DNA of 64,000 nucleotides from Candidatus Bathyarchaeia archaeon (GTDB lineage Archaea > Thermoproteota > Bathyarchaeia > Bathyarchaeales > DTEX01): positions 64,064-128,063 of the forward strand of contig JAWAXF010000003.1 of assembly GCA_038897035.1 (NCBI GenBank). The letters run 5' to 3'. This document shows, in pieces, positions 5,667 through 64,000 of this stretch. A program made the translations under genes and the position numbers. The notes under the pieces were generated by a model that saw nothing but the letters and a program-made list of their open reading frames with translations, made no database searches and was not told where the DNA came from. Within the stretch, counting starts at the first letter, position 1. Each line of letters begins with the position of its first letter.

Positions 5667-5676
5667 GGTGTAATCT

Positions 5677-6546: not shown

Positions 6547-6564
6547 CGCATATGGTGGCCATTT

Positions 6565-8948: not shown

Positions 8949-9214
8949 GAAAAATTGATTGTATGCCGCATGCAAATCCTCTTGCCTATTTCTCACATTT
9001 TCTGAGCCTAGCCCTCTCCTCTCCCACCTTCATATTAAGCGCTTAGTTGCCCATCAATTCCTTTTTTGCTTGGTTCTAAACTCAATAATCTTCCTAGGAT
9101 AATATGGGCTTCATAAAAATATCCATTGGCTTTGTAATTTTAGCCTGACTTTTAACGCATAATCCGAATAAGAATCTTCTTTACTCTTTCGACAGTCTTT
9201 TCTCTCTTCACTAT

Positions 9215-46774: not shown

Positions 46775-46786
46775 GAAACGTTCCCT

Positions 46787-47659
46787 CTAAGTAATCTGAG
46801 ACCACTCATAGAAACCTTTACCAGTTTTTTTACCAAGGAAGCCAGCTCTAATCATTTGCCTTAAGAGCGGGCTCGGCCGGAACTTAGGATCCAATTCGCC
46901 TTCTAAGACTTCAAGTATTGCTAGGGCCGTATCTAAGCCAATATAATCTAATAGCTTTAATGGCCCCATCGGCCAGTTTAATCCGAGCTCACATGCCTTA
47001 TCTATATCATCTCTTTCAGCAACCCCTTCCCAAAGAATATGTAGAGCCTCATTTAATGCTGCCATAAGTATCCTATTAACTATGAAGCCAACGCAATCTT
47101 TCTTGACGATCACGGGCTCCTTTCCCATCCTTCTGGCAGCCTCAGCAACGGTATTTATTGTCTCGTCCGACGTTCTTGCGCCTCGAATTATTTCTACAAG
47201 CCTCATTATTTGGGGCGGGTTAAAGAAGTGCATCCCGCAGAATCTTTCAGGCCTACTTATTGACGAGGCGAGTTCCGTTATACTTAGCGAAGAAGTATTC
47301 GTGGCGAGTATAGCTTCCGGCTTAGCAATTCTATCAACTTGAGAGAATATATTCTTCTTTGACTGAATGTCTTCAGCAATTGTCTCAATTATTAGATCTG
47401 CATCAAAAATAGCCTTATCTAAATCTGAAAGTGGTATGACGCGTATTCTATTTAAGGTCTCCTTAATTTGATCCTCAGTTAATAAGCCCTTTTTATGGAA
47501 CTTCTGCAAGCTATCTTTTATCATTGCCATTGCTTTATCGAGAGTTGATGGACTCCTGCTTAACATAACTACATCGAATTTTGCTACTTGAGCAGCCACT
47601 TGGGCTATACCATGTCCCATTAAACCAGCTCCAATAACAGCCACCTTTTTAATCTCCAA
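46787..47659 (-). CDS. hbd: 3-hydroxyacyl/3-hydroxybutyryl-CoA dehydrogenase
   Basis: VIGAGLMGHGIA Rossmann motif, NTSSLS, HFFNP and a C-terminal dimerisation domain. Confidence 0.88.
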   Translation of the reverse strand: MEIKKVAVIGAGLMGHGIAQVAAQVAKFDVVMLSRSPSTLDKAMAMIKDSLQKFHKKGLLTEDQIKETLNRIRVIPLSDLDKAIFDADLIIETIAEDIQSKKNIFSQVDRIAKPEAILATNTSSLSITELASSISRPERFCGMHFFNPPQIMRLVEIIRGARTSDETINTVAEAARRMGKEPVIVKKDCVGFIVNRILMAALNEALHILWEGVAERDDIDKACELGLNWPMGPLKLLDYIGLDTALAILEVLEGELDPKFRPSPLLRQMIRAGFLGKKTGKGFYEWSQIT

Positions 47660-47954
47660 TGATTACTCCCTCCAGCTTTACTCCACACACGCATAACATT
47701 TATTCATTGTTCTTCTTAAGATTTATTAAAATAAACCGCAAACAAATAAAAACAACACTTGAAGGTTCTAAAGGCTTTTTGGTTTAAAATGGGACTCCTA
47801 AACTCATACGTTTCTTCCAGAAAATAGCTGGTGTAAAGAGTTGCCTAATCCCGCATCTCTAAGGGCTTTCGTTTGAATAGAATTAAATAGCATCCAATTA
47901 CTTTTCATTCCAGAAATAGAGAGGTGAAGGAGTCTCTGTTAGTATCTGTACCAC

Positions 47955-48305
47955 TTAGCTTTTAGGATAACCAGCGATAACCAGCATTGTAGCTGGCATA
48001 TTTGTTCTGTTTATTAGGTAACGTTTTTCACAGGGAGGTATATATAATGAGTCCAGAGGTTTTAGAACTATTTCTTTTTTATCCTCAGTTATCACGGTCA
48101 TCTCTCCAGAGATCATTAAGTAAACTCTCTCAACATTGGACGCGGACATTTCGGCCCCGCCACCGGGAAGGAAATGTGATAATCCAACCCAGAAGCTTTC
48201 CACACCAGTCGTCTCCTTATGCTGTAAACGCAGAGCAACCATTCCAAAGTGTCCTGCCGCCTCATAGGGCTTAGCGTCTTTTAATTCCACCTTCTTCATT
48301 TTCAT
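47955..48305 (-). CDS. Cupin-fold protein
   Basis: 116 aa with the FLPGGGAEMSASNVERVYLMISGEMTV beta-barrel pattern. The canonical His ligands are not evident. Confidence 0.55.
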   Translation of the reverse strand: MKMKKVELKDAKPYEAAGHFGMVALRLQHKETTGVESFWVGLSHFLPGGGAEMSASNVERVYLMISGEMTVITEDKKEIVLKPLDSLYIPPCEKRYLINRTNMPATMLVIAGYPKS

Positions 48306-48554
48306 TTCACTCTCCAGAGATACTCATTCTTTCTTTTGATAACCTCAATATATTTAAAAGTTTCAGTGTTTTAGTTCTATCGGGCCTATTTAATTATTCT
48401 ATTTCCCACTTTAACATGTAAGAGAAATCCCTCATCATAAGGAAGGAAATTAAAATCTTTATTATCAAAAATTATCTAAATTAAAAATGCTTCTCAAAAC
48501 ACTTCTTATTCCAAATTGCGAAAAACTGATATTCATTTCTTTTTCTTTTAAAGT

Positions 48555-49331
48555 TTGGGGGTAGTAATATTGAGACTTAGAGATAAAGTCGCGTTAATTA
48601 CGGGTGCGGGATCAGGAATAGGGCAGGCAACGGCAGTATTATTTGCTAAAGAAGGAGCAAAAATTGCAGTTGTTGATATAGTGAAAGAAACAGGTGAAGA
48701 AACAGTGAGAATGATTCACGATTTTGGTGGAGAGGCCATATTTATACAAGCTGACGTTGCTAAGGCTAATGAGGTACAGAAGATGGTGGAAACCACCGTG
48801 AACAACTATGGGGGACTTGATATACTCTTTAATAATGCTGGCATTAATATACCGGCTCCAATAACCGAAATAACGGAGGAAATTTGGGACAGAATAATAA
48901 ACGTAAACTTAAAGGGCGTCTTCTTAGGCTGCAAATATGCAGTCCCTCTAATGAAGAAGCAACGGAGTGGAGTAATCATAAATACAGCCTCGGCCCTTGC
49001 ATGGGTGGGGGCAATTAATTTCAGCGCTTACTGCGCCTCAAAAGGCGGAATCCTTGCCTTTACAAGAGCCTTAGCTTTAGAATTAGCGCCATATAATATC
49101 CGTGTTAACTGCATATGCCCGGGAGCGACCGATACCCCGCTCCTTCGGCAGCTATCGGGGAAAACTGAGAGGCCTAATGAGACGCTAGAATCGCACTTGA
49201 AGCTAATCCCATTGGGGAGACTGGGGAGACCCGAGGATATTGCTTATGCAGCTCTCTTCTTAGCCTCTGACGAGTCAGCTTTCATTACAGGAGCAGCCCT
49301 GCTCGTTGACGGAGGGTTCACAGCACGATAA
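48555..49331 (+). CDS. Short-chain dehydrogenase/reductase (classical SDR)
   Basis: TTG start. TGAGSGIG, NNAG and YCASKGG motifs. Confidence 0.88.
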   Translation: MGVVILRLRDKVALITGAGSGIGQATAVLFAKEGAKIAVVDIVKETGEETVRMIHDFGGEAIFIQADVAKANEVQKMVETTVNNYGGLDILFNNAGINIPAPITEITEEIWDRIINVNLKGVFLGCKYAVPLMKKQRSGVIINTASALAWVGAINFSAYCASKGGILAFTRALALELAPYNIRVNCICPGATDTPLLRQLSGKTERPNETLESHLKLIPLGRLGRPEDIAYAALFLASDESAFITGAALLVDGGFTAR

Positions 49332-49486: not shown

Positions 49487-50785
49487 TTATGGTAGTGGCC
49501 AGATCGGCTTCTCTACTGGAGCTTTGATCCACGATGGGACGTAAACTATATTCATGTCCCATTTTCCATCCTTCATTACGAATTGCGCTAGCGTGTTTGT
49601 TGTCTCGCATATGTGGTCCGGCCTGAATTTGACCTGACCCACAGGCATTTCTATATCCACTTTGGCGAACGCATCCCTTATTGCTGTTCTATCTAGGGTG
49701 CCTGCAACCTTTATGGCTTCGACTGCAACGTAGAAGGCGGTATATGCGATGCCTTCCATATGTGTCAAGCTCATGTCCCCGAAGTATTTCTGCCAGTTCT
49801 CCTTAAACCATTCATTTCCTTTGAATGGCAAAGTATACCACCAGTGAGTTTCAGCTGTTATTCCTTCAGCTAGCTCTCTACCTAAAGCCTCTGCCTCCGG
49901 GATCTTCATACATCTGCCGACACAGAACATTAATGGCTTAAAACCGAATGCGGCACATTGGCGTCTGAAAGCAATCCAGTCTGCTGGCAGAGTGTTAGCT
50001 ATGACCACGTTAACGCCTTCTTCCTTGAATTTTAGTATAATGGGTGTGAAATCAGTTATGCCTGGAGGATGCAGTCCTGGGTCAACTATCATGAAACCTG
50101 CTTCTTGTAGTTTCGGAGTTACTTTCTTTTTAGCGTCGCGTCCGCTTACATCGTCAGAGTAGAGTACTCCTATCTTCTTAATCTGGTCTTTCCACTGGCT
50201 GAGCCACTCTTTCCAAAGCATTCCGTAAATAGTATAGTTAAAGCTACAATGCCATGTCCATGTAAACTTGTTTCCGGGGATTGATGGGAGAGCGTTCATC
50301 GCGATCGTATCTACTGGGCTCATACTCAGTACTGGCTGTCCACCTACTTTCTCAGCGCTAATTACTGCTGGAACTGTAAATGGTGGTGGTGCACCAATGA
50401 ATATAACGAGATGCGCGACTTTCTCCGTTACGGCTTTTGTTGCAAGCTCAACATACCTGGAAGTTGAGCTCTCCCCATCATAGAATATCAGCTCTATTGG
50501 GTGATATTTGCCAGTCCCTGATAAATATACTCCACCCTTCGCATTAATTTCTGTTGCGAGAGCGGTCATCAAAAGTCTATGCCGTATACCTTCAGGCGCG
50601 TAACCTCCAGACAAGTTCAATACTACTGCAATCTTAATGGGTTCGCCTTTTTCTGTTGGGCGCACTTGCGTTTGAGAATAATAATAGTAGACCACAGCGG
50701 CGGCAGCGATGATTATAATAACTATTGCTATTAGAATAGCTTGCATTTTGCTAACAGCTTTTTTATTCCTCATATATTCCTTCAT
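49487..50785 (-). CDS. Liv-type (PBP type I) ABC substrate-binding protein, membrane-anchored
   Basis: N-terminal TM anchor (ILIAIVIIIIAAAAVVYYYY) followed by a ~390-aa LivJ/K-like two-lobe pattern. Confidence 0.8.
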   Translation of the reverse strand: MKEYMRNKKAVSKMQAILIAIVIIIIAAAAVVYYYYSQTQVRPTEKGEPIKIAVVLNLSGGYAPEGIRHRLLMTALATEINAKGGVYLSGTGKYHPIELIFYDGESSTSRYVELATKAVTEKVAHLVIFIGAPPPFTVPAVISAEKVGGQPVLSMSPVDTIAMNALPSIPGNKFTWTWHCSFNYTIYGMLWKEWLSQWKDQIKKIGVLYSDDVSGRDAKKKVTPKLQEAGFMIVDPGLHPPGITDFTPIILKFKEEGVNVVIANTLPADWIAFRRQCAAFGFKPLMFCVGRCMKIPEAEALGRELAEGITAETHWWYTLPFKGNEWFKENWQKYFGDMSLTHMEGIAYTAFYVAVEAIKVAGTLDRTAIRDAFAKVDIEMPVGQVKFRPDHICETTNTLAQFVMKDGKWDMNIVYVPSWIKAPVEKPIWPLP

Positions 50786-51339
50786 CCTCGATACTCTAAT
50801 ATTTTCAACCCGTTTTATAAATCTTTCCCAATATTCACTTCTATGATTTTGGTTTCTTTAGGTTCATAGGTTGCCGTTTTAGTTCTATTTTTAAGCGATT
50901 CTTCTTGCCAAACCTCTGGCAGAGTTGCTTATAAGGTCTCCGGGCTCACCCAAGGACATGAAAACCTTAATAATAAAATTGTCAAGGGAATTGAAGAAAC
51001 ACAGAAACTGATGGAGCGCTTCCTAATAAGGGAGCTTATAAAATGGCAATCCGACATTTTTATTTAGAAGTTCGTCCGTAGAACTATGGGGTGTAGCCTC
51101 TGGATAACTGTATATTTGAAAAGAAGGAAATATCTGATTTAAGAAGCACGCTTGCCGTAGCGGAGGCAAATGGAGAGCTTATTCGCATAAAAAAACCTGT
51201 TAATGTTAAGCTCGAGCTAGTTGGAGAATACCTCAAGCATGCAGGGGGAACCCCTGTTCCTCAGCCGACGAAGATTGGGCCAATCGTATTATTCGAAAAC
51301 GTTTTCCGAGCGGTTAATTCACAAGTAATTCCATACGGG

Positions 51340-52530
51340 ATGCCTGTGGTGGCTGGCGTCCTTGGAAGTCGCAGAAGGGTTGCATTATACTTTAACACTC
51401 CTGAAAAGAACCTTGCCTTAAAGATGTTGGAGGCTATACGTAATCCGATTCCTCCGATATATGTTAGAGACGCGCCATGCCAAGAAGTTGTGATTGATAG
51501 GAATATTGACTTAACCGCGCAGCTTCCCATACCAACAATGTCATATGATTGCGCTGGCCCTACTATAACTATGGGTCTAATACTTGGGATTGATCCAGAA
51601 ACAGGTCAAAGAGACGTAACTTTTCATAGGATGTTTGTCATAGCTCCAGATACGCTCACTGCATTAATGGGACCTATTAGACATATAAAGCAAATGCAAT
51701 TAAAAGCGGAGGCTAAAGGTGAACCCTTCCCCATATCCATAAATATAGGCATAGACCCCTTTAGCGCGATTTCAGCGGGTATTTCGTCACCGACAGGCAC
51801 AGGTTTAGATGAGCTCGCTGTTGCAGGAGCATTAAAAGGCTCCCCTATAGAATTGGTGAAATGCAAGACCATTAATTGTGAGGCCATAGCCAACGCTGAA
51901 ATAGTGCTTGAGGCTGAAATACAACCAAATGTAAAAATTATGGAAGATACGGTTTCAGAGAAGAAGGGCTGGTCTATGCCTGAAATGGCTGGATATGTGG
52001 GGAGGGCAGCTTTAGCCCAAGTTGTTAAGGTGAAGGCAATAACCTGCAGGATGAAACCTATCTACCAGACTTTAGTCACCCCTGGTGAAGAACACAATGT
52101 TATTATGGGTATTCCTGGAGAAGCTGAAATCCTAAACGCTGCTTGGAAAGCGGGATATCGTGATTTACTTACAGACGTACATCTTTTACCAGCTGGTGGG
52201 GGGAAGCTAATTGCTGCGCTTCAGGTTAGAAAGAGAAGCACGGATGATGACTTAGAAGTTAGGAACCTTGCCTTAATCGCGCTTGCAACGAGACTTGAAA
52301 TGCGATACGTGATTATAGTGGATGAGGATGTAGATATACGTGATCCCATGGACTTATGGTGGGCCTTTACAACAAGATTTAATCCAAAAGAAGACCTTAT
52401 AGTAATTGATCAATGCAAAGTCTGGCCTGGCTTAGCGGAACATATACGCATAACTAAGGCGATTCTCGACTGCACAGTACCATGGGATAAAAAAGAGGAG
52501 ATGCGAAGACCTCGCTGGAAAAGAGACTAG
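51340..52530 (+). CDS. UbiD-family (prFMN-dependent) decarboxylase/carboxylase; start unresolved
   Basis: The first canonical start is at 51340. The same frame stays open back to 51097 and encodes a UbiD-like N-terminus (EISDLRSTLAVAEANGELIRIKKPVNVKLEL...PIVLFENV). See findings. Confidence 0.75.
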   Translation: MPVVAGVLGSRRRVALYFNTPEKNLALKMLEAIRNPIPPIYVRDAPCQEVVIDRNIDLTAQLPIPTMSYDCAGPTITMGLILGIDPETGQRDVTFHRMFVIAPDTLTALMGPIRHIKQMQLKAEAKGEPFPISINIGIDPFSAISAGISSPTGTGLDELAVAGALKGSPIELVKCKTINCEAIANAEIVLEAEIQPNVKIMEDTVSEKKGWSMPEMAGYVGRAALAQVVKVKAITCRMKPIYQTLVTPGEEHNVIMGIPGEAEILNAAWKAGYRDLLTDVHLLPAGGGKLIAALQVRKRSTDDDLEVRNLALIALATRLEMRYVIIVDEDVDIRDPMDLWWAFTTRFNPKEDLIVIDQCKVWPGLAEHIRITKAILDCTVPWDKKEEMRRPRWKRD

Positions 52531-52736: not shown

Positions 52737-54017
52737 TTGAACGATAAACCGCGCATTTGTTTAGTGCCTATAGGCAGAATATCTAATGATGTTTTTAAAC
52801 GTGATATTGACAATGTTGAAAATCTGCTTAGGGAATTCGATGTTGAGCTGAAGAAGATCGATGCTATCTCAAATGAGCTACAGGCCCCTCAGTTAAGGAA
52901 TTTACCTGAGAAAGAGAGCTATGATCTTACGCTTTTATTATCCCTTCATGGAGCTACGGCCCATTTGCAAGTATCTGCGGCTGAATGCTTAGAAAAACCT
53001 GTTGTTATTTGGTCGTTGCCCAAGCGTTTTTCCTTCCCTACCTCTGCCAGCGCTTATGGTGCTTTGAAAGAGCGGGGCTTTTGGGTAACCCTTTTGCATG
53101 GAGAGTCTAATGACAAAAAGCTTGCGGAAGAGGTTGTTACGCTGGCAAGAGTGGCATTTGCCATTCATAAACTCTCAAAAACACGTATTGGCATTCTTGG
53201 GAGCTTACCGCACTATATGTTAGCCTCTCTTTATGACTCTGAAGCTCTTGAAAAAAGATTTGGCGTTAAACTAAAACAGCTTTCACATTTCGAGTTTATG
53301 AGCATCTTAAAATCTTTCCAACTTGAAAAGAAGGGTAATATTGAGCAAGTCCTACGTGAAAATGTGAATGTTCAAACGGATGAATGTTCTCTAAGCAAGG
53401 GAATAGCCGTTCACAAAGCAATAAAGGAAATTTTATGCAGGTATAAACTTAACGCAATTGCGTTAGGCTGTCACCCGGACCTTGAGGCCGAGCTTCAAAT
53501 TAATCCTTGCTTTGGTTTTGTTGAAGATTCATATGCCATCGGCTGTGAATGTGATGTCTTGTCGCTCATCTCCGCTCTATTTCTGAAATATCTAAGCGGG
53601 GTTTCAGCCTGGATAACGGATATATATTCGCTAGAGGGCGACAGGCTTACGTTAGCTCATTGCGCAGCGGCAAAATCATTAGCTATGGGTAATGAAGTTA
53701 TAATTTCTGGAAAAACACAAAAGGAAATAGGAGATAGACCACATACCCTTGCCGAATGTAGGCCTAAAATTCCAAAAGGGCCCGCTACTTTAGTTAGACT
53801 TTTGGGGAAACAGGCTGATAGATTACATTTAACCTTTGGAGAGATAGAGAGCTGTGATGTGGAGGAGCAAGTTAAAGTGACCTTAAGGATTCAAGGCAAC
53901 CCCAAAGAATTTATCCGGTATGCTATGGGCAACCATTATACTATGGCACTAGGCGATCTTAGAGAAGAAGTAAAAATTCTTTGTGAACGATTAAACATCA
54001 AGGTGATAGAGACTTAG
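52737..54017 (+). CDS. FucI/AraA-superfamily isomerase-like protein
   Basis: 426 aa with a Rossmann-like N-domain and the ...AIGCECDVLS...GNHYTMALGD pattern. These recall the Glu/Asp and His metal/catalytic positions of sugar isomerase-like proteins. The assignment is tentative. Confidence 0.4.
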   Translation: MNDKPRICLVPIGRISNDVFKRDIDNVENLLREFDVELKKIDAISNELQAPQLRNLPEKESYDLTLLLSLHGATAHLQVSAAECLEKPVVIWSLPKRFSFPTSASAYGALKERGFWVTLLHGESNDKKLAEEVVTLARVAFAIHKLSKTRIGILGSLPHYMLASLYDSEALEKRFGVKLKQLSHFEFMSILKSFQLEKKGNIEQVLRENVNVQTDECSLSKGIAVHKAIKEILCRYKLNAIALGCHPDLEAELQINPCFGFVEDSYAIGCECDVLSLISALFLKYLSGVSAWITDIYSLEGDRLTLAHCAAAKSLAMGNEVIISGKTQKEIGDRPHTLAECRPKIPKGPATLVRLLGKQADRLHLTFGEIESCDVEEQVKVTLRIQGNPKEFIRYAMGNHYTMALGDLREEVKILCERLNIKVIET

Positions 54018-54044: not shown

Positions 54045-54908
54045 CTAGAAGCCCTCTAGCCCAGAAGTTATCTCTTTAAGCCACCGTTCATACATTTTTG
54101 AGTTGTATAACGCTAATCCCGGTAATAACCTATCAAGTATCTGTTTCATAGTTTCTTTTGATGCGCAAGCAATACTTCCACCGTCAACTGGAATACAGCA
54201 GCCAGTAATATACTCTGCATCAGGCGATACGAGCCATAAAGCTACTTTTGCAACATCCATGGGGGTTGCCATCCTCCCCATGGGGGTCATTTTTGCTAAG
54301 GCTTCCCATGTCTCCGGCGGATGGTGTCTAAACATGTCGGTCATCACGGTACCTGGTATTACAGCATTTACTCTAATCTGTGGAGCAAGGGTACCCGCAA
54401 GAGTCCTAACAAGCATCGCAGTAGCCGCTTTAGCACTGAGGTAATGCCAATCTGAGGGACGCACATTATATATACCAGCAGTTAAAGTAAAAAGAATACT
54501 GCCCCTTCCTTGCTTTAACATGTGGGGCACCACATGCTTCGTGAGAAAGAATGGACCCTTAACTATAATGTTATATGTCTGGTCCCAAACTTCTTCCGTT
54601 ACATCATCAATTGTCTTGCAAATATAATGAATAGCAGCGTTATGATATAATATATCTATTCTTCCGAACTCATCTAATGTAGCTTTCACTAATTTTTCAT
54701 GGTCTTTTAGGTTTCCTATATCTGCTTGAACGGCAATGGCTCTTCTTCCCATTTCCTTTATTTTATCTACGACTTTTTGTGCCGCATCCGCATCTCTAAC
54801 ATAGTTCACAACTATATCTGCGCCCTCTTGCGCGAAAAGTAACGCGGCGGCTCTACCTATTCCACGGGAGGAGCCAGTTATAATAGCTACCTGGTCTTTT
54901 AATTTCAT
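54045..54908 (-). CDS. Short-chain dehydrogenase/reductase with C-terminal extension
   Basis: TGSSRGIG, HNAA and YLSAKAA motifs, plus about 40 extra C-terminal residues. Confidence 0.85.
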   Translation of the reverse strand: MKLKDQVAIITGSSRGIGRAAALLFAQEGADIVVNYVRDADAAQKVVDKIKEMGRRAIAVQADIGNLKDHEKLVKATLDEFGRIDILYHNAAIHYICKTIDDVTEEVWDQTYNIIVKGPFFLTKHVVPHMLKQGRGSILFTLTAGIYNVRPSDWHYLSAKAATAMLVRTLAGTLAPQIRVNAVIPGTVMTDMFRHHPPETWEALAKMTPMGRMATPMDVAKVALWLVSPDAEYITGCCIPVDGGSIACASKETMKQILDRLLPGLALYNSKMYERWLKEITSGLEGF

Positions 54909-55236: not shown

Positions 55237-57816
55237 CTATTTCATTATGAAGAACTTTGGCATTTCTTCTGGTTTGGCTTTGTATACTTTGCATAGGAGG
55301 GCTCTGTCGTACCATGCTCCTGTCTTTTCGTCTAAAGTTGCTGGGTCATCTTCAGTTAAGATATTAGCATTTGATATTAAGGCTCCCCCCAGCCATGGCT
55401 CCTCTGCTGGAAGCTCTGGGTACCACCATGAAGCCTCAACATTTACGACTCTAGGGTGAATGTGAGCGCCTATTCGGGCCCTTTGCAATATTCTTCCTCT
55501 TCTAGTTTCAACCCATACCCAGTCACCGTCCGTTATGCCAAGTTTTCTCGCCGTTTCATAGTGAATGTCGCATAGAGGCCACGGATGTTGCTCTCTGAAG
55601 TTCATTCCCCACTGGCGGTACTCTGAGTGGAACATCGGCCTAAACCTTCCGCCAGTCGTTAATATAAGTGGATATTCCTCAGCTAATTCAGGGGTTCTAA
55701 CAGGGCTCTCGAATGGTTCCTCATACTCGGGAAGGGGATCGTATCCCAAGTCTTCTAGTATTGTGCTCCAGATTTCAGCCCTTCTGCTTGGCGTAGCAAA
55801 GCCTCTTGGCTTACCTGTTCTTGGATCGATCAGAGCATACGCTCTATCATCTTCTCTTCTCCATCCCGGTGTCTCTGAAATAATGAAGCCTCTTCTTGCA
55901 GCCTCTTTCAATGTTAAACCTATCCTTGCAAGGCGGTATTCAACAACTTCTCTTTGGTTTTTCCATGGGAAGTATTCGCCTAATCCAAGGCGTACCGCAA
56001 GACCTCTGAAGAGGTCATAGTCACTGTGTCGATCTCCGAGAGGTTCTATAGCATTTTCGCCTACAGCCATCATCTCCTGATAATCTTCCCAATTGCAACA
56101 GTATGGTACTTCTAGAGATTTGGCTGCCGCTGGTAGCACGTAGTCTGCTAAGGCTGCTGTAGGTGTCATCCAGTAGTCTTGAACAACATGTAACTCTAAA
56201 TTAGGACTCTTCAAAGCCTTAATAACTAGCTTGGTATTCGGAGCCCACATAACCGGGTTTCCACTCCAGGTTATCAGCGCTTTTATCGGATATGGTTTTC
56301 CAGTAAGTATTGCCCGCCATATAAGCGGCACTGATGTAACCATGGTATGTCCTCCAGCATTTTGAGGTATACCCCATGTCCTATGATAATATTCATTATA
56401 ACGGTCATATGCTGGCCAAGCCATAGCCTTATGCTGGTCTGCGCCTAGCTGTTTAAGCTTTGTTTCAGGCTTTATGTATTCATGCCCCTCAAGCTCAGAT
56501 TCTCTAACCGCAAGTTTTCCTCCGATAATCGGGCCGGGTCTAGAACGGTATAAACGTATGCCTCCTCTAACATCATAGTTTCCTGTTATTAAATGAATTA
56601 TCGTCATGGCTATGTGGTTATCTGAAGTATTCTTTCCAGCTTGGTAGAGTGAGACACCCGCGCCTATTCCTCCGGGTCTTCTAGCCCAGAACATTCTAGC
56701 TGTTTCAACGATCTTTTCAGCTGGGATCCATGTTATTTCTTCGACTTTTTCAGGAGTATATTTACTTACCCGCTCGATAAGAAGCTGCCAAACTGTTTTA
56801 CATTCAACTTCCCGTCCATCTAAAAGCCTAACTTTGTATTTTCCTGTTAAAGCTGGCTGGGCATCTTTGGGCCTGTACTCCATGCTTTCAGAAACCCAAA
56901 TGGCCGGGGCGTTCTCACGAACATTCCAGATAACAAAGTTCTCACGTGAACCGCCAGCTATCAAGTCGCTTTCCCGGAGAGTCTTCCTGGTGTCTAAGCG
57001 CACAAGAAACGGAGCATTAGTCCATCCTTCCACAAATTCTTTGTCGTATAACCCCTCATCAATCAAAATTTTAATCCAAGCTAAAAGCAAGGCAGCATCA
57101 GTGCCCGGCCTAATCTGAAGCCACATATCTGCCTCTCTAGCAGTTTCAGTACACCTCGGATCGACACAAACTAAGAAAATGTTCTTACGGTTAAGTATAA
57201 TACTCTGCCACAAAGTAATAAAAGACTCTTTAGGATTAAAGCCCATAGATACAAAATATCTTGCACCATCACTTACGTCTGGGAATTCAACCGAGAACGC
57301 CCCTGTCATACATTGTTCTACAGCGCTTCCAGGGTGGTGACATATGGTGCTTGGGTCCCCCAAGTTAAAGGGGTTTCCAAAAAGATACGCGAATCTTGAT
57401 CTTGCCCAAAAAACGTCTGAACGCATTGTTCCTTCAATGAAAGCAAGACATTCGGGACCATATTTAGCTTTTAGTTCCTTGAGCTTCTCGGCTATTTCGT
57501 CCAAAGCTTGCTCGTAGGGTATGCGTTGCCATTTGCCCTCTCCCCGTTCGCCCACGCGCTTCAAGGCGTACATAAGCTGGTCGGGATGCTCTAACCACTT
57601 TACAGGAAAGTTGGGTATAATAGCCCTGTCAGGACAAACTAGCCGTTCCTGCACCAAAGGATCTGGATGAAGAGCCCAAAGTTTTGTCATTGGATGTTCA
57701 GGATTTCCCTCGACCTTAATGATTTTGCCAGTGTTCCTGTCCACGTATGCAAGAAGCCCGCAGTGCATAAAGCAGCCGCCAGCGCCATTGTGGCATATTA
57801 TCCTTCTAACCTCCAT
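55237..57816 (-). CDS. Bis-MGD molybdo/tungstopterin oxidoreductase catalytic subunit, cytoplasmic
   Basis: MopB architecture: GKIIKVEGNPEHP, IRPGTDAAL and a C-terminal GDWVWVETRRG beta-barrel. Variant N-terminal Cys cluster CHNGAGGCFMHCG...C. No twin-arginine signal. Start taken at MEVRRIICHNG; the track ORF starts at 57894. Confidence 0.85.
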   Translation of the reverse strand: MEVRRIICHNGAGGCFMHCGLLAYVDRNTGKIIKVEGNPEHPMTKLWALHPDPLVQERLVCPDRAIIPNFPVKWLEHPDQLMYALKRVGERGEGKWQRIPYEQALDEIAEKLKELKAKYGPECLAFIEGTMRSDVFWARSRFAYLFGNPFNLGDPSTICHHPGSAVEQCMTGAFSVEFPDVSDGARYFVSMGFNPKESFITLWQSIILNRKNIFLVCVDPRCTETAREADMWLQIRPGTDAALLLAWIKILIDEGLYDKEFVEGWTNAPFLVRLDTRKTLRESDLIAGGSRENFVIWNVRENAPAIWVSESMEYRPKDAQPALTGKYKVRLLDGREVECKTVWQLLIERVSKYTPEKVEEITWIPAEKIVETARMFWARRPGGIGAGVSLYQAGKNTSDNHIAMTIIHLITGNYDVRGGIRLYRSRPGPIIGGKLAVRESELEGHEYIKPETKLKQLGADQHKAMAWPAYDRYNEYYHRTWGIPQNAGGHTMVTSVPLIWRAILTGKPYPIKALITWSGNPVMWAPNTKLVIKALKSPNLELHVVQDYWMTPTAALADYVLPAAAKSLEVPYCCNWEDYQEMMAVGENAIEPLGDRHSDYDLFRGLAVRLGLGEYFPWKNQREVVEYRLARIGLTLKEAARRGFIISETPGWRREDDRAYALIDPRTGKPRGFATPSRRAEIWSTILEDLGYDPLPEYEEPFESPVRTPELAEEYPLILTTGGRFRPMFHSEYRQWGMNFREQHPWPLCDIHYETARKLGITDGDWVWVETRRGRILQRARIGAHIHPRVVNVEASWWYPELPAEEPWLGGALISNANILTEDDPATLDEKTGAWYDRALLCKVYKAKPEEMPKFFIMK

Positions 57817-57974
57817 ATCCCTGCTCAATGAAGGCACCCCTATTTTTACAAAGTAAAAGTAGAAACGCTTGCTTTTATTTATCTTTTTCATCAACGAGAA
57901 TTTGTCATCAAGTTATATCTTATAAAATTTAAAAACACTTTTACCAAAAAATCCCGAATCTATAAAGTGCTAAG

Positions 57975-58937
57975 TCATGGTCCACGCATTTTTCTTCTAG
58001 TGAGGAAGGCGTGTACATATCCCATGATACCTCTGGGGAAGACCAGTACCATGGCCACAATTATTACTCCATAAACCAGCATAGCGAGTCCTGGAAATTC
58101 GACGAGAAAAGTTTGTCTCAGCCAAACAACGAAAAACGCACCTATGATGGGGCCAAGAATTGTTCGCACCCCTCCAAAAACTGTAGCTGTTATTGAAGAT
58201 AGAGTCCAGTAGAAGGCGAAAGCTGCTGCTGGTGAGATAAAACCTGAATAGATAAAGTAGAGACTTCCTGAAATTCCTGCAAAGAAGGATGATATAACCC
58301 AGCATAAAAGCTTGGTTTTGAAGACATCAACGCCGTAAGATTCTGCAGCTATATCATCATCTGCTATTGCTTTAAGCCTTAACCCTACCCTACTTTGCAC
58401 AATGATATATGCAACAAATATTGAAGCAATAGCGATCACAAGAGATATATAGTATAAATCATAAACTGTTACGTGCGCCACTATGGGCATTCCATAACCT
58501 CCACCAACATATGACCAGCCTTGGAACCAGTAGAAAAGAACAGAAGCGCTTACTAGGGTGCCCATTGCGAAATACAACCCCCTCATTTTTATAATCAGGA
58601 AGGATGTTGCTAAAGCTAACAAAACGCACATGGTTCCGCTGATAAACATGCTAACTAGAAGGTGCAAACCCCAAAGTGTACACGCTATTGCCGTTATGTA
58701 CCCTCCAAAACCTACAAACCCATGAAAACCAAGGGCTAGCATCCCTGAATAGCCCGAGAGAAGATTGTAAACTTCAGCCATAGCCGTGTACGTAAAGAAG
58801 AGAAAGAAAAGGGTTATCCAATCAGGTCCTAACCCTAATGGTACTAGAAGCGCGACTATGATTCCTCCAATAATTAAGTAAAATCTAATATCTTTAGAGA
58901 GCTTTATATTTTCAAAGCTAACAGTATTCTTCTTCAT
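57975..58937 (-). CDS. livM: Branched-chain-type ABC transporter permease
   Basis: 320 aa polytopic membrane protein. 4-nt overlap with livH. Confidence 0.85.
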   Translation of the reverse strand: MKKNTVSFENIKLSKDIRFYLIIGGIIVALLVPLGLGPDWITLFFLFFTYTAMAEVYNLLSGYSGMLALGFHGFVGFGGYITAIACTLWGLHLLVSMFISGTMCVLLALATSFLIIKMRGLYFAMGTLVSASVLFYWFQGWSYVGGGYGMPIVAHVTVYDLYYISLVIAIASIFVAYIIVQSRVGLRLKAIADDDIAAESYGVDVFKTKLLCWVISSFFAGISGSLYFIYSGFISPAAAFAFYWTLSSITATVFGGVRTILGPIIGAFFVVWLRQTFLVEFPGLAMLVYGVIIVAMVLVFPRGIMGYVHAFLTRRKMRGP

Positions 58938-59812
58938 ACTTCATACCCAAATATTCCTTCTGGTTTCAAGTAAAGCACTATTAACGTTATAAGATTTTGT
59001 ATAAGGAAAGCATATGCTATTCCTATATAATATGAAGCCAATGCTTGGACAAGACCCACAATAACGCCTCCGACTAGAGCGCCTCGAATACTACCTATGC
59101 CGCCAAGAATTATGACGGAAAAAGCCATACCTAGGTAAATGTGCCCGTAGCTGGGTTCAAAAGCGTAGGTCAACCCTACGAATATTCCTCCTAATGCGGC
59201 AAGTACCGCACCTATGCCGAAAGTGATTGCATACATCCTCTTGTCATTTACCCCAAAAAGGTTAACAGTTATAGGATCCTCAGACGTAGCTCTAATAGCC
59301 CTGCCTATGAAAGTATATTTTAGGAAAATATAGACGAAAATCATTGCAGCCATTGCAGCGATAAAGTCTATTAAATATATAAAAGGTAAGCTAATACCAA
59401 ACAACGTTATACTTCTACCTGCGTAGCTTGGAGCGTAAGGCGTTAAGCTTTTTGCATCAGGACCATAAAGTATGAGTAGAAAGTTTTCGACAATTAAACC
59501 TATCCCTAATATTAATGGTATACGGCCTGCAGGTTCACGCAACATCACCCTATTTATTAGTGAATACTGTAGTGCTAGACCTATACAAAAAACTACAGGA
59601 AGCACTACAAGCGCGGACAGCAGGGGGTCAAGCCTCAATAATGTAACTGTGCTAAAACTAAGATAACAGCCCAAAACAACCATTTGCCCATGAGATACAT
59701 TCATAGTATACCTAATGCCCGTAAAAATTAAGGATAAACCTAAACCCACAATTCCATACACGCCGCCCACAAAAATACCCATTAATATTACCTCAATCAT
59801 ATACATCACCAA
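58934..59812 (-). CDS. livH: Branched-chain-type ABC transporter permease
   Basis: 292 aa polytopic membrane protein of the LivH pattern. Confidence 0.85.
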   Translation of the reverse strand: MVMYMIEVILMGIFVGGVYGIVGLGLSLIFTGIRYTMNVSHGQMVVLGCYLSFSTVTLLRLDPLLSALVVLPVVFCIGLALQYSLINRVMLREPAGRIPLILGIGLIVENFLLILYGPDAKSLTPYAPSYAGRSITLFGISLPFIYLIDFIAAMAAMIFVYIFLKYTFIGRAIRATSEDPITVNLFGVNDKRMYAITFGIGAVLAALGGIFVGLTYAFEPSYGHIYLGMAFSVIILGGIGSIRGALVGGVIVGLVQALASYYIGIAYAFLIQNLITLIVLYLKPEGIFGYEV

Positions 59813-59871
59813 TGATTTACTGTATATATGTAGAAGTAGAAAATGTTACAATATATGTTAATCATATCACA

Positions 59872-60594
59872 TTAAACCCCAAAGTAAGCTTTCATTAATT
59901 CCTTGCTTTTAAGTATTTCTTTTGATCTACCTTCCAGAGTTATTCGCCCGGACCCCATTATATATGCGTAATCGCTTATTTCAAGGCTTCTTTTAATGTT
60001 CTCATCTACAAGAAGAATTGTTATTCCTAGTTGCTTAATTTCATCAACCTTTTTGTATATGTCCTCTCTAACCTTTGGAGCTAAACCTAAGGTTACCTCA
60101 TCTAACATTAACAATTTTGGATCAGCCATCAAGCTTCTTGCAATAGCAAGCATTTGCTGTTCTCCCCCACTTAAAGTTCCGGCTTTTTGGTTTTCTCGTT
60201 CGGCAAGCACCGGAAAAAGTTCATAAATTTCCTTAAGCTTTTGAGTCATATTTTTCCTTTTTGTCTTTGGATAGCAACCCATCAGCAAATTCTCCTTAAC
60301 CGTCATTCGTGTAAAAAGTTTTCGACCCTCAGGTACCTGAATCACTCCAAGATCAGCTATACGCCAAGGAGGAAGATGATCAATTCTTTCACCCTTAAAT
60401 TTAATGGTACCTTTTTTAGGGTGGATTAGCCCGGAAATTGTTTTGATAAGCGTTGATTTTCCCGCACCATTTGGTCCTACTAAAGCAACCGTGGTCCTCT
60501 CATGTATTTTCATAGAAATATCTCGTAAAACGTCTATGTATTCGTAAGAGACGTCAATGTTATTTATTTCTAAAAGCACGTCCTCCGAGTTCAT
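59872..60594 (-). CDS. livF: ABC transporter ATP-binding protein
   Basis: Walker A GPNGAGKST, signature LSGGEQQ and Walker B LLMLDE. Confidence 0.9.
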   Translation of the reverse strand: MNSEDVLLEINNIDVSYEYIDVLRDISMKIHERTTVALVGPNGAGKSTLIKTISGLIHPKKGTIKFKGERIDHLPPWRIADLGVIQVPEGRKLFTRMTVKENLLMGCYPKTKRKNMTQKLKEIYELFPVLAERENQKAGTLSGGEQQMLAIARSLMADPKLLMLDEVTLGLAPKVREDIYKKVDEIKQLGITILLVDENIKRSLEISDYAYIMGSGRITLEGRSKEILKSKELMKAYFGV

Positions 60595-60599
60595 GCGGT

Positions 60600-61313
60600 T
60601 TATCCCCCCAAATATATGTCAACGACTTCTTTGCTACTTAGCACATCTTTTGGCGCGCCCTCAAACAACTTCATACCACGATGCATAAACATTACTCTAT
60701 CAGCAACTCGAGTAATAAGCTCCATCCTATGCTCCACCAAAACTATTGTTATTCCCGTGCCAGAAACTTTTTTAATAACCTCTGCTAAGTAATCAATTTC
60801 CTCCTCTCGCATTCCAGCCGCAGGTTCATCTAAAAGTAGAAGCTTGGGCTTACATGCCAGAGCTCTTGCTATCTCAAGTCTTTTTAATTGAAAAGGAAGC
60901 AAGGATCCGGCGGGAACATCCTTTAAGTTTTCTATTTTTAACAATTTTAACACTTCCATATCATACTCAAGAGCATCCGCATACTTCATGTTTTGACTTG
61001 AAATTGAAGCAACCAGCAAATTCTCCAATACTGTGAGTCTCGGGAATGGACGAGGAATTTGATAGGCTCTTGCCATCCCCATTCTACAAATTTTATGGGG
61101 GGGTAAGCCTTTAATGGAACGCCCTAAAAATTCTATCTTCCCAGCATCTGGTAAATATATGCCCGTTATAACATTGAAAAGGGTTGTTTTGCCAGAGCCA
61201 TTCGGCCCTATTATCCCAAAAATTTCGTTCTTATAAACTTCAAATGTTACATTTGACAAAGCATATAAGCCGCCAAAGCGTTTAGTTATACCTTCCCCTC
61301 TTAAGATGACCAT
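60600..61313 (-). CDS. livG: ABC transporter ATP-binding protein
   Basis: Walker A GPNGSGKTT and Walker B LLLLDEPAAG. Confidence 0.9.
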   Translation of the reverse strand: MVILRGEGITKRFGGLYALSNVTFEVYKNEIFGIIGPNGSGKTTLFNVITGIYLPDAGKIEFLGRSIKGLPPHKICRMGMARAYQIPRPFPRLTVLENLLVASISSQNMKYADALEYDMEVLKLLKIENLKDVPAGSLLPFQLKRLEIARALACKPKLLLLDEPAAGMREEEIDYLAEVIKKVSGTGITIVLVEHRMELITRVADRVMFMHRGMKLFEGAPKDVLSSKEVVDIYLGG

Positions 61314-61499
61314 TAGCTATTAACACACCAATTCGTTTTTAGCAATAATAGCCATCTTACCTATTGTTAATGAGTTTTATAAATTTTACTCAAAAATTTA
61401 CATAATTCGCTTCAGCGGTCATAGACTAAGTACGTCCAAGATAATAACTCAAAAAATAAATATTTATCTCTCTAAATAAGATTTTAGAGGTGGGAAATA

Positions 61500-64000
61500 T
61501 TGAGTAAAACGGAAAAAATGAACTATATATCTGCAGGTTTATGCGGGGTTTCGGGCTCTTCGTTACCCAGCGAAGTCCATGTGAGGAACGGAAAAATTAT
61601 AAGAATTCTTCCATTCCACTTTCCAGAGAATGTTAGGCTTTACGAGATTAAGACTGATAAAGGGGTCTTTACTAGGCCAAGAAAGCATGTCCCATGGACT
61701 TATATGCTGGCCTTTAAAAAGAGGGCGTTTTCGCCAAACAGGGTCATGTATCCCTTGAAGAGGATTGATTGGAACCCTGAAAACAGGAACCCACAAAATA
61801 GGGGAAAATCAGGCTTTGTGAGGATTTCTTGGGAGGAAGCCTTAGACATAATAGCGAATGAGATAAGAAGAATAAAAGAAGTTTACGGCTCGACAGAACC
61901 TATATTAGTATTAGCGGATGGCCATGGACAATCAGGTTATTTGCAAACAACCCATGGCTGGGCGCATTACCTTTTTGATAAGCTTGGTACAGGATGGACC
62001 ATATCTGTTAGAAATCCTGACAGTTGGGAAGGATACTATTATGGTGCAAAACATGTCTGGGGGTTCGACGAGTCGGTTGGGGAGCCTAACCAAGACGCTA
62101 TATGGGACGACATCCTACAGAACTGTGAAATGATTATCTTTAGTGGCTGCGACCCTGAAACAACCGTACCTGGCTTCTCAGGACAGATGGGTACGTATTT
62201 CTGCGATTATCTGAAGAAAGCTGGGATTAAGATTGTTGGTGTATCTCCAGATATGAACTATGCTATAGCCTTACATGCGGATAAGTGGATTCCAGTACGT
62301 CCCAACACGGATGCAGCGCTCTACCTTGCAATCGCACATGTATGGATAACAGAAAAAAGCTATGATGAGGAATATGTAAGAACGCATTGTATTGGTTTTG
62401 ATGAATTTAAGAATTATGTTTTAGGTAAAGATGATGGCACCCCTAAGACGCCTGAATGGGCGGAAAAGATTTGCGGAACTCCATCCTCAGCCATCAAAGC
62501 CTTAGCTAGAGCATGGGCTAGAAAGCGAACATCTTTAGCCGTGCATTATGGAGGCCCAAAGATCAGAGGTTTCTTGTCACATTTACCAGCACGACTAGAG
62601 GCATATTTACTTGCTATGCAGGGGCTCGGAAAGCCTGGAAGACAATTCGTAAGGCTTATTAGGACGCTTCCTTGGCTAGTTTTCAAAAAATTGCCTCCAA
62701 TTCCACAATATCCAGAAACGCTCAGGGAGGGCATCCCGCCACAGCCACCAGCTCCAGAATATATAGGCTCTCCTCCAGAGGGGAGACCTTTTATACTTAA
62801 AACTCTAATTCCTGAGGCCATACTTAACCCGCCAGTCTACTGGTATGGTAAGAATATTATTGTCTGCCCAAGCGAAGATCAATTTAAGGTCTATAGATTT
62901 CCTCCATATGATGGGCACCCGGGAATAAGGGCAATCTGGAATGAGAACTCATGTATGACTGCATGCTGGAACTATGGGTATAAAATGATTGAGGCTATGA
63001 GGAGTCCTAAGATAGAGTTTGTGGTATCTGTGACCCCTTGGCTTGAGAATGATGCTCTCTTCTCAGATATAATATTGCCAGCCCAAACGATTTTTGAACA
63101 TGAAGACCTTGTAGTGGTGCATCACTCAGACACATATGGTATCTTTTACCAAGAAAAGTCTATTGAGCCCATAGGCGAATCTAAAAGTGATTATGAAATT
63201 TACAGGCTTATTGCGGAGAGACTTGGCATTGGAGAATATTTCCTTCAAGTAGAGGAGCTACTAAGAAAAACCTACGAAACGACATTAGCCTCTAGAAAGC
63301 TTCCGTGGGAGGAATTCAAGAAGAAAAAATGTTACATTTATGATGCACCTACATGGGAAGAATGGCTTAAGATAAAAAAGAATGAAATGGGCTTTGAAAA
63401 ATATGAGGGTGGCACGGCTTGGTTCTATAAGCAAGGAACAGGTTTAGGGACCCCAACAGGCAAGATAGAATTTGTTTCTCAGAGAATATTAAAGTACTCT
63501 CCAGAGGATGAAGAAAGACCACCCCTCGCAAAGTGGGTAGCTCATGGAGAAAGCCCTCTTAGTCAAAAGGCTAGGGAATATCCATTCTTAGTCGTCTCAA
63601 ATCATCCAAGATGGAGACATCACACTATAGGTGATGACATAACGTGGTTAAGAGAACTTCCTTCATGTAAGGTAAGAGGACCGGATGGCTATTTATACGA
63701 GCCTGTGTGGATCCACCCCAAGGATGCTGCTAAGAGGGGTATTAAAAATGGAGATATAGTGATGGTTTACAATGACAGAGGAGCCATTCTATGCGGAGCC
63801 ATCGTTACCGAAAGGATAATTCCAGGGGCTCTACAAATAGCGCACGGCTCTCGTTTGGATCTGATTTCCATAGAAGCCAAAATTGATAGAGGTGGTTGCA
63901 TCAACCTTATATGTCCCTCACCGCGCGAAAAATATAAAGAGGGGACTCCTGTAAAGGTGCCTGAAATGGCTGTCAGCGGTTTTCTTGCTGACATCAAGAA
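61500..64000 (+). CDS. Pyrogallol-phloroglucinol transhydroxylase large-subunit-like molybdoenzyme (AthL-like), 3' end outside window
   Basis: Absent from the ORF track because it has no stop codon inside the window. I translated it by hand from the TTG at 61500 (GAGGTG lies 8 nt upstream, with an in-frame TAG at 61485). The frame is open to base 64000 (833 codons). No N-terminal FeS Cys motif. Motifs: GKIIRILP, NPDSWEGYYYGAKHVWGF, GKDDGTPKTPEWAEKICG, ESKSDYEIYRLIAERLGIGEYF, RGIKNGDIVMVYNDRGAIL, DRGGCINLICP. Confidence 0.8.
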   Translation, partial: MSKTEKMNYISAGLCGVSGSSLPSEVHVRNGKIIRILPFHFPENVRLYEIKTDKGVFTRPRKHVPWTYMLAFKKRAFSPNRVMYPLKRIDWNPENRNPQNRGKSGFVRISWEEALDIIANEIRRIKEVYGSTEPILVLADGHGQSGYLQTTHGWAHYLFDKLGTGWTISVRNPDSWEGYYYGAKHVWGFDESVGEPNQDAIWDDILQNCEMIIFSGCDPETTVPGFSGQMGTYFCDYLKKAGIKIVGVSPDMNYAIALHADKWIPVRPNTDAALYLAIAHVWITEKSYDEEYVRTHCIGFDEFKNYVLGKDDGTPKTPEWAEKICGTPSSAIKALARAWARKRTSLAVHYGGPKIRGFLSHLPARLEAYLLAMQGLGKPGRQFVRLIRTLPWLVFKKLPPIPQYPETLREGIPPQPPAPEYIGSPPEGRPFILKTLIPEAILNPPVYWYGKNIIVCPSEDQFKVYRFPPYDGHPGIRAIWNENSCMTACWNYGYKMIEAMRSPKIEFVVSVTPWLENDALFSDIILPAQTIFEHEDLVVVHHSDTYGIFYQEKSIEPIGESKSDYEIYRLIAERLGIGEYFLQVEELLRKTYETTLASRKLPWEEFKKKKCYIYDAPTWEEWLKIKKNEMGFEKYEGGTAWFYKQGTGLGTPTGKIEFVSQRILKYSPEDEERPPLAKWVAHGESPLSQKAREYPFLVVSNHPRWRHHTIGDDITWLRELPSCKVRGPDGYLYEPVWIHPKDAAKRGIKNGDIVMVYNDRGAILCGAIVTERIIPGALQIAHGSRLDLISIEAKIDRGGCINLICPSPREKYKEGTPVKVPEMAVSGFLADIK

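Follow-up and report, generated by a model that had tools for sequence, protein, structure and literature searches.

The question raised by this locus is whether an archaeon carries a pyrogallol-phloroglucinol transhydroxylase, the enzyme whose large subunit is AthL. The DNA concerned is a stretch of 64,000 nucleotides from a Candidatus Bathyarchaeia archaeon (the window), and the gene in question lies at its far end, where an earlier note made from the letters alone had described an AthL-like molybdoenzyme. We have found that this gene codes for the catalytic (alpha) subunit of a molybdenum/tungsten bis-pyranopterin guanine dinucleotide (Mo/W-bisPGD) enzyme that belongs to the broad AthL/RhL family, i.e., the Ser-ligated PgtL/RhL lineage of the dimethyl sulfoxide (DMSO) reductase superfamily, but to a sister clade of the one that contains AthL itself. 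We consider it slightly better than an even bet that alpha and the beta subunit encoded next to it form a soluble, cytoplasmic redox enzyme of this sister clade, transferring hydroxyl groups on a phenolic substrate, and not an orthologue of the pyrogallol transhydroxylase.

The reading frame (+3) is free of stops from 61488 to the window edge at 64000, which amounts to 837 codons, or to the 833 originally counted from the TTG at 61500, and it was absent from the list of open reading frames (ORFs) solely because those running off the window end go unlisted. Contigs extending beyond this edge were found through an exact-protein look-up of the neighbouring ATP-binding cassette (ABC) ATPase, which led to six public contigs (L001–L006). 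The final 10 kb of the window match L001 (NCBI GCA_038840575.1, 131 kb long) and L003 (JGI) at 100% identity, and both of these contigs reach further. On them, the complete alpha gene has 866 codons and occupies window-equivalent positions 61500–64100 on the + strand. The TTG start at 61500 is backed by a Shine-Dalgarno-like GAGGTG (61486–61491) and by the N-termini of homologues. The protein carries the Pfam domains Molybdopterin and Molydop_binding. Its N-terminus has neither the CxxCxxxC motif (FS0), whose absence had already been pointed out, nor a twin-arginine translocation (Tat) motif, and the same is true of 120/120 members of its own clade and 120/120 members of the AthL clade; no transmembrane helix was found in it either. 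A chance ORF or a pseudogene was ruled out by the intact frame, the near-total identity across six independent assemblies and the conserved invariant residues, and a periplasmic or respiratory enzyme by the lack of a Tat signal, of transmembrane helices and of an anchor gene. The locus is present at 99.99–100% nucleotide identity in L001–L006, which come from NCBI, ENA, JGI (two metagenomes) and two SRA runs, so that the organism recurs across samples.

Among solved structures the top match of alpha was the AthL chain 4v4c_A (phmmer E 2.6e-123), and the next family was DMSO reductase (DorA, 2e-69). A profile of the relatives of the query gave a single alignment over AthL residues 11–868 (E 4e-173), a range that was rebuilt from the printed alignment with numbering that agreed. 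The same order was obtained by fold. An AlphaFold (AF2) model of the 866-aa protein (pLDDT 87, pTM 0.90), in which the N-terminal beta-rich domain shared with AthL is visible, had 4v4c_A as its top Foldseek match (E 1e-71, TM 0.82), with DMSO and trimethylamine N-oxide (TMAO) reductases at TM ~0.75 and E 5e-55. The best NCBIfam matches were bisC_fam, dmsA_ynfE and torA, all far under cutoff (318 vs 1017 bits for bisC_fam, 255 vs 1465 for torA). PF21423, the AhtL-like first domain, scored 18.5 bits (E 0.0015) on alpha, under its 27-bit cutoff, and a precomputed match to it is carried by many members of the query clade. The five motifs that the earlier note quoted are all present and do match AthL (NPDSWEGYYYGAKHVWGF, GKDDGTPKTPEWAE, ESKSDYEIYRLIAERLGIGEYF, RGIKNGDIVMVYNDRG and DRGGCIN), a similarity far beyond chance, but to speak of long near-identical stretches was an overstatement, since the overall identity is 34% by BLASTP (34–37% across comparisons). 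Identity to TorA is 28%, and 24–28% over DorA, TorA and BisC. As AthL comes first by both sequence and fold, the subunit paired with alpha is of the BthL type (see below) and the NCBIfam cutoffs are missed, alpha can safely be placed in the broad AthL/RhL lineage.

Orthology to AthL is a different matter. The query has a clade of its own, with relatives at 55–83% identity. Many of its relatives come from Bathyarchaeia, Nitrososphaeria, Nezhaarchaeota, Methanomethylicota, Thermoplasmataceae and Conexivisphaera calida; in Bacteria they are found in Alpha-, Beta- and Deltaproteobacteria and, at 45–49%, in Dehalococcoidia and other Chloroflexota. Species-representative genomes hold 592 or more loci of this sister clade, and there are hundreds of archaeal homologues in the databases. 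AthL sits in a dense clade of its own (≥61% identity) made up of Clostridia, Peptococcaceae and Deltaproteobacteria. Resorcinol hydroxylase was represented by the first 399 residues of RhL (UniProt A0N0U2), taken from a supplementary table of PMC7327174; over this length RhL shares 60% of its residues with AthL and 38% with the query, and its closest match among the retrieved family proteins is at 63%. In neighbour-joining trees with E. coli TorA as the outgroup, AthL plus RhL was monophyletic in 50/50 bootstraps and so was the superclade of the query, which is placed outside the AthL+RhL clade, against orthology with AthL. Having seen Betaproteobacteria among the close relatives, we had suspected that the query clade contained RhL, and this was rejected when the RhL N-terminus grouped with AthL. 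The query is thus shown to lie in an uncharacterised sister clade to AthL+RhL, with both biochemically characterised enzymes across the deepest split. A plasmid collection searched by tblastn returned only distant relatives (28–37%) under generic names. One AthL-clade protein, P0148 (867 aa), is Arg/Pro-rich over residues ~230–330, unlike all its relatives, probably through a frameshift in that public assembly; it was left out of the alignments.

The comparison of the active sites points the same way. Asp174-Ser175-Trp176-Glu177, Arg359 (also listed as R356), Tyr404 and one His (AthL numbering) are invariant or nearly so in both clades. The metal ligand Ser175, in the NPDSWEG motif with Asp174 and Trp176, is invariant across the two, and Tyr404 is kept in 28/30 sequences of the query clade. 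Other residues that do not vary in the AthL clade have changed. His144-His145 corresponds in the query to a lone invariant His142 beside a 2-residue deletion. Arg153 is replaced by Leu, Phe468 by Ile (Ala/Ser in most of the clade), Lys750 by Asp (Asp or Glu in the clade) and Trp387 by Val or Leu across the clade, while Trp354 sits in a deleted 5-residue segment and the 11-residue loop bearing Tyr560 is deleted in the query. Arg153, Trp354, Phe468 and the Tyr560 loop are kept in 16–17/17 AthL-clade sequences. Positions 153 and 354 are not conserved between RhL and AthL either, as expected of specificity determinants. The description of the AthL structure by Messerschmidt et al. in 2004 reportedly gives the catalytic and binding roles of these residues, His144 and Tyr404 included; a literature search for the roles of Tyr404, His144 and Asp174 returned nothing relevant. 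Judged by the alignments, the catalytic core has been kept and the substrate pocket is remodelled relative to AthL; the expectation of an AthL active site held for the Mo-ligand Ser, Asp174 and Tyr404 and failed for Arg153, Trp354, Phe468 and the Tyr560 loop.

The second major difference is found in the beta subunit. A BthL-like gene with three [4Fe-4S] clusters had been predicted just past 64 kb, and a BthL-like gene is indeed there, 5 bp 3' of alpha and outside the window (289 codons, window-equivalent 64106–64975), but with four cluster sites and not three. The match to BthL is full length and includes the C-terminal barrel (E 4e-50, aligned through residue 273; NrfC scored 3e-31), and the protein consists, like BthL, of a ferredoxin (Fer4_11) followed by a CarboxypepD_reg-like barrel (E 3.6e-11); the alpha-then-beta gene order is also that of AthL/BthL. 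Among 80 related loci, a beta gene lies directly 3' of alpha in 53. Sixteen Cys, arranged in four canonical groups, make up four [4Fe-4S] motifs in the query beta, and each Cys is kept in 52–53 of the 53 betas directly 3' of clade alphas, with the exception of C104 (44/53). BthL, with 12 ligand Cys, is without exactly C81, C101, C104 and C112, and likewise all five other full-length betas of the AthL clade, four of them bacterial (L087, L088) and one archaeal (L015). In DmsB and NarH the fourth Cys of group II and the first three of group III bind FS4, the distal cluster, from which electrons pass on to the next partner. The absence of the FS4 Cys from BthL fits the three clusters of the BthL crystal. 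The query clade, on the other hand, keeps a complete four-cluster wire under selection. Some betas of Chloroflexota and Desulfobacteraceae (L054, L061) have only the second Cys of group III, the C104 column of the query, replaced by Met or Ser. NarH has a Trp at this second position of group III and binds a [3Fe-4S] cluster, and by analogy these betas may carry a 3Fe distal cluster.

We have read the retention of the four-cluster wire as a sign of net electron exchange (hydroxylation with water or reductive dehydroxylation) and not of redox-neutral transhydroxylation. The alpha/beta enzyme would hydroxylate a phenolic ring with an OH group taken from water, or strip such a group off reductively, and the wire would carry the electrons between the active site and a partner outside the complex, in one direction or the other. 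AthL, by contrast, moves a hydroxyl from one phenol to another and leaves the overall redox state unchanged. RhLS, the resorcinol hydroxylase from Azoarcus (Aromatoleum) anaerobius, has the same two-subunit architecture and catalyses a reaction of the kind proposed for the query, hydroxylating a phenol in a water-dependent redox process. RhLS differs in that RhL groups with AthL and is far from the query in sequence; it is also reportedly membrane-associated, in a nitrate reducer. Another parallel is the 3,5-dihydroxybenzoate cluster of Thauera aromatica AR-1, where anaerobic dihydroxybenzoate catabolism goes along with a homologue of acetylene hydratase, as in the window and in locus L008 described below, although that cluster is bacterial, nitrate-respiring and dedicated to an oxidative hydroxyhydroquinone pathway. 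According to Molina-Fuentes et al. in 2015, the Thauera operon is also said to encode an AthL-type hydroxylase, DbhLS.

The host is an archaeon, as had been proposed. The window carries Orc1/Cdc6, RadA, archaeal Dph2, Rrp4, PAC2, archaeal AMP phosphorylase, FwdB, Ftr and L10e, a protein identical to the 426-aa neighbour described below is labelled 'Candidatus Bathyarchaeia archaeon' at NCBI, and the nearest genomes are metagenome-assembled genomes (MAGs) of hot-spring Bathyarchaeia. Alpha is indeed divergent from an importer operon, a Liv-type ABC system at 57975..61313 (-) with two ATPases (60600–61313 and 59872–60594, both -) and two BPD_transp_2 permeases (58934–59812 and 57975–58937, both -). 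Homologous ABC genes adjoin alpha/beta in 12/80 related loci. The intergenic region between operon and alpha (61314..61499), as read from the sequence, is 186 bp long and AT-rich and includes, besides the Shine-Dalgarno-like motif mentioned above, the TATA-like elements TTTATAAA (~61379) and AAATATTTAT (~61459), putative promoters. A Peripla_BP_6 solute-binding protein at 49487..50785 (-) is probably the binding component of the importer; proteins of this family flank AthL-clade genes in L088 too.

Next to the ABC operon lies a second Mo/W enzyme of 885 aa (55237..57894, -; likely start near 57816–57828, MEVRRIICHNGAGGCFMHCG...) that resembles acetylene hydratase (2e7z, E 8.6e-102) and is called AH-like here. 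Its metal-ligand Cys is conserved, the N-terminus has an unusual C-x6-C-x3-C...C motif and there is no Tat signal, from which a cytoplasmic location is predicted. It may be an enzyme of the catechol dehydroxylase type. The AH-like group includes catechol dehydroxylases, with homologues 'even in Archaea', and a member encoded in the Thauera 3,5-dihydroxybenzoate operon impairs growth when lost (PMC7028382). Further along the island we found a generic FabG-like short-chain dehydrogenase/reductase (SDR) of 287 aa (54045..54908, -) and a 426-aa protein (52737..54017, +) with no passing Pfam family and one sub-threshold Fucose_iso_C match. The confident model of the latter has an L-arabinose/L-fucose isomerase fold at 12–14% identity, and its family is very rare (11 clusters in 5.8 billion sequences, with apparently only similar archaea as sources). 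They are followed by a UbiD-family decarboxylase at 51100..52530 (+), of 476 aa as called on L001 or 396 aa from the ATG at 51340, that is nearest to AroY 3,4-dihydroxybenzoate decarboxylases (E 3e-89).

An accessory module at 45992..49331 is made up of an SDR (48555–49331, +), a cupin (47958–48302, -), a 3-hydroxyacyl-CoA dehydrogenase (3HCDH; 46787–47659, -) and an enoyl-CoA hydratase (ECH; 45992–46774, -). The island edge is occupied by a corrinoid (B12-binding) protein (44017–44658, +) and a methyltransferase of the URO-D/MtaA type (44655–45899, +) whose gene overlaps the former by 4 bp; judging from the sequences, the pair is a putative aryl O-demethylase module. At a distance from the island there are also a formylmethanofuran:tetrahydromethanopterin formyltransferase (Ftr) at 18648–19550 (-), the subunit B of formylmethanofuran dehydrogenase (FwdB), above its NCBIfam cutoff, at 20080–21516 (+) and a thiolase at 16455–17756. 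Ftr and FwdB belong to the archaeal methyl branch, which could accept methyl groups from O-demethylation.

Put together, the island looks built for the anaerobic breakdown of plant phenolic acids. The Liv-type system would import a (methoxy/hydroxy)benzoate, the corrinoid module would O-demethylate it and the AroY-like UbiD enzyme would decarboxylate it, after which alpha/beta and the adjacent AH-like enzyme, presumably in the same pathway, would re-pattern the ring hydroxyls, and the product would pass to the SDR, the cupin and the beta-oxidation-type enzymes. The substrate of alpha/beta would then probably be a hydroxylated aromatic derived from an imported and decarboxylated hydroxybenzoate.

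A similar set of genes was found in a related genome. Locus L008 (Bathyarchaeia JZ-1_bins_90) has a 73% alpha orthologue and codes on one strand, in this order, for alpha, beta, an AH-like enzyme (77%) and the 426-aa protein (72%), with an 88% identical orthologue of the 287-aa SDR and ABC genes nearby. The match with the window indicates that the set is conserved between the two genomes despite rearrangement. The pairing of the AH-like gene with alpha/beta is suggestive, not established.

As a positive control we used L087, where an 81% AthL orthologue has BKACE, cupin, two SDRs, 3HCDH and Cyclase as its neighbours, the gene set of the experimentally defined phloroglucinol pathway (PMC10470551). 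All the pathway components looked for as a sign of linkage (the phloroglucinol reductase SDR, the DPGC cyclase, TfD and TAL/BKACE) are there. The window has homologues of its cupin (48%), SDR (34%) and 3HCDH (38%). We searched the solved structures for a phloroglucinol reductase with the window SDRs and that of L011, and no entry so named was returned.

Five archaeal loci (L011, L012, L014, L015 and L028) contain an alpha paralogue at 57–59% with a four-cluster beta. All five have a Cyclase (PF04199, 35–37% identical to that of L087), a thiolase-like and a DUF35-like protein and an ECH, and most of them have a NarJ-type chaperone, an SDR (42–44% to the L087 SDR) and a CoA-transferase. With the window they share the ECH (48%), archaeal hosts (Bathyarchaeia- and Nitrososphaeria-labelled MAGs) and a cupin, detected in L011 only, between beta and Cyclase, and 78% identical to that of the window. 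They differ in having the NarJ-type chaperone and the Cyclase, SDR, thiolase and CoA-transferase, where the window has the ABC importer, the AH-like enzyme, the isomerase-fold protein and UbiD. The gene for the NarJ/TorD-type (Nitrate_red_del) chaperone is at 9116–9811 (+) in L011 and is found at 9 other loci of clade members; in the window none was found by tblastn.

One of these loci, L015, from the Bathyarchaeia MAG JZ-1_201803_bins_90, has in addition an AthL-clade alpha/beta pair (4107–7538, -, with alpha at 4959–7538) back-to-back with the query-clade alpha/beta and the Cyclase/ECH/thiolase cluster. Its alpha (859 aa) is 57% identical to AthL over the full length and keeps His-His, Arg153, Trp387, Tyr404, Phe468, the Tyr560 loop and Lys750, but not Trp354, and its beta (283 aa) is of the three-cluster type, without the four distal-cluster Cys. 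AthL-clade enzymes do therefore occur in Bathyarchaeia, as separate paralogues.

Several observations weigh against a redox enzyme acting on phenols within a dedicated island. The AH-like gene is within 10 kb of alpha in just 8/80 loci and as a close orthologue in L008 only, any given accessory gene is common to just 8 to 15 of the 80, and the island genes do not share one strand and may belong to more than one regulon. There is no gene for an electron-transfer partner next to alpha/beta, and the window plus 3.6 kb contains neither DPGC/Cyclase (PF04199) nor TAL/BKACE. The link between three clusters and non-redox and four clusters and redox chemistry is unproven, RhLS being redox-active and yet in the AthL clade. 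The register of His142 is ambiguous (it pairs with His144 by phmmer and with His145 by MAFFT), the trees were made by neighbour-joining and not by maximum likelihood, and the clade is without a characterised member, so that the substrate class and the reaction are taken solely from homology and neighbours.

Another explanation would have alpha/beta hydroxylate or dehydroxylate a substrate that is not a phenol (e.g., an alicyclic or heterocyclic compound or a CoA-bound intermediate), the aromatic-looking neighbours being coincidental. Several points could be cited for it. The pocket is remodelled, accessory genes vary among loci, genes for ECH, thiolase, CoA-transferase and acyl-CoA dehydrogenase recur near clade members and there are close relatives in aerobic Alphaproteobacteria. 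We nevertheless hold this explanation to be unlikely, considering that the Asp, Tyr and His proposed for phenol chemistry are retained, that both characterised relatives act on phenols and that AroY-type UbiD, cupin, SDR plus Cyclase and Peripla_BP_6 genes recur around the family.

The original proposal of a genuine archaeal pyrogallol-phloroglucinol transhydroxylase, by which pyrogallol made from gallate by UbiD would be isomerised with tetrahydroxybenzene as cosubstrate and no net redox change, has come out as quite improbable. What stands of it is that AthL/BthL are the best solved relatives, with the Ser/Asp/Tyr core conserved. A UbiD of the AroY/gallate decarboxylase type is nearby, the cupin, SDR and 3HCDH of the window are homologous to those of a bona fide AthL-linked phloroglucinol cluster, and paralogues of the clade adjoin an SDR plus Cyclase module. 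Against these have to be set the identity of 34%, the placement outside the AthL+RhL clade, the loss of four pocket features that do not vary in the AthL clade (Arg153, Trp354, Phe468 and the Tyr560 loop), the conserved four-cluster beta and the lack of DPGC or TAL genes, while the separate AthL-clade gene held by related genomes means that the role is already filled.

A bolder version of the redox reading would make the island an archaeal anaerobic funnel for hydroxybenzoates derived from lignin and tannin, in which oxidative, water-dependent hydroxylation by alpha/beta and reductive dehydroxylation by the AH-like enzyme, with the electrons passing via the distal cluster of beta, would amount to a 'split transhydroxylase' working without tetrahydroxybenzene. 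It would give Bathyarchaeia a dearomatisation route for the rings left after O-demethylation, and we regard it as a long shot.

Last, a cytoplasmic S- or N-oxide reductase (of the DMSO, TMAO or biotin-sulfoxide type) with no tie to aromatics is very improbable: it could appeal to the best NCBIfam matches, to the names of TMAO reductase or anaerobic DMSO reductase given to homologues by JGI/UniRef, to the Ser ligand shared with DorA and TorA, enzymes that like the query have no FS0, and to the use of DMSO as an oxidant in vitro by AthL-type enzymes, but those scores are far under the cutoffs and identity to TorA is just 28%, DorA, TorA and BisC are monomeric, mostly periplasmic with Tat signals and without the ferredoxin beta that is of the BthL type here and recurs 3' of alpha across the related loci, and the query has NPDSWEG in place of the DorA-type Ser context as well as aromatic surroundings.

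The novelty claimed for Archaea has to be restated. The archaeal member is real, but the hundreds of archaeal homologues, the AthL-clade gene of L015 and the phloroglucinol cluster reported in Archaeoglobus from genome analysis (PMC10470551) all weaken the claim of a first. The gene is not the first archaeal AthL; it belongs to a variant, so far unstudied, of an enzyme type already known, and sits in an informative archaeal island. This matters for annotation. Pipelines and papers on polyphenols tag any AthL homologue as pyrogallol transhydroxylase (pgthAB); examples, named on homology alone, are the 'pyrogallol hydroxytransferases' of Dehalococcoidia (PMC4959651) and the 'pgthAB' of SAR116. 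Since the sister clade differs in pocket residues that are invariant in the AthL clade and in the number of FeS clusters, such a transfer to its members is probably wrong.

Bathyarchaeia have been proposed as major anaerobic degraders of lignin, and in a cultured lineage no known ring-cleavage genes were found (PMC10989822). The O-demethylase-like module, the AroY-like decarboxylase and the two Mo/W enzymes of the window are candidate genes for this question in hot-spring Bathyarchaeia, to which the paralogous loci add the SDR plus Cyclase module, of the phloroglucinol reductase/ring hydrolase type, and a true AthL-clade gene. A published scenario has the RhL/PgtL lineage arise late, in connection with land plants (PMC10100899). 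Given a sister clade that is broadly distributed in Archaea and Bacteria and whose four-cluster subunit is intact, the three-cluster AthL type would seem to be the derived form.

In Dehalococcoidia we observed tandem arrays (L054:3366–15250, and also L062 and L068) with up to four alpha genes of the AthL family, in which members of the query superclade and of the AthL clade are mixed. Such mixed arrays suggest that the family has diversified over many substrates.

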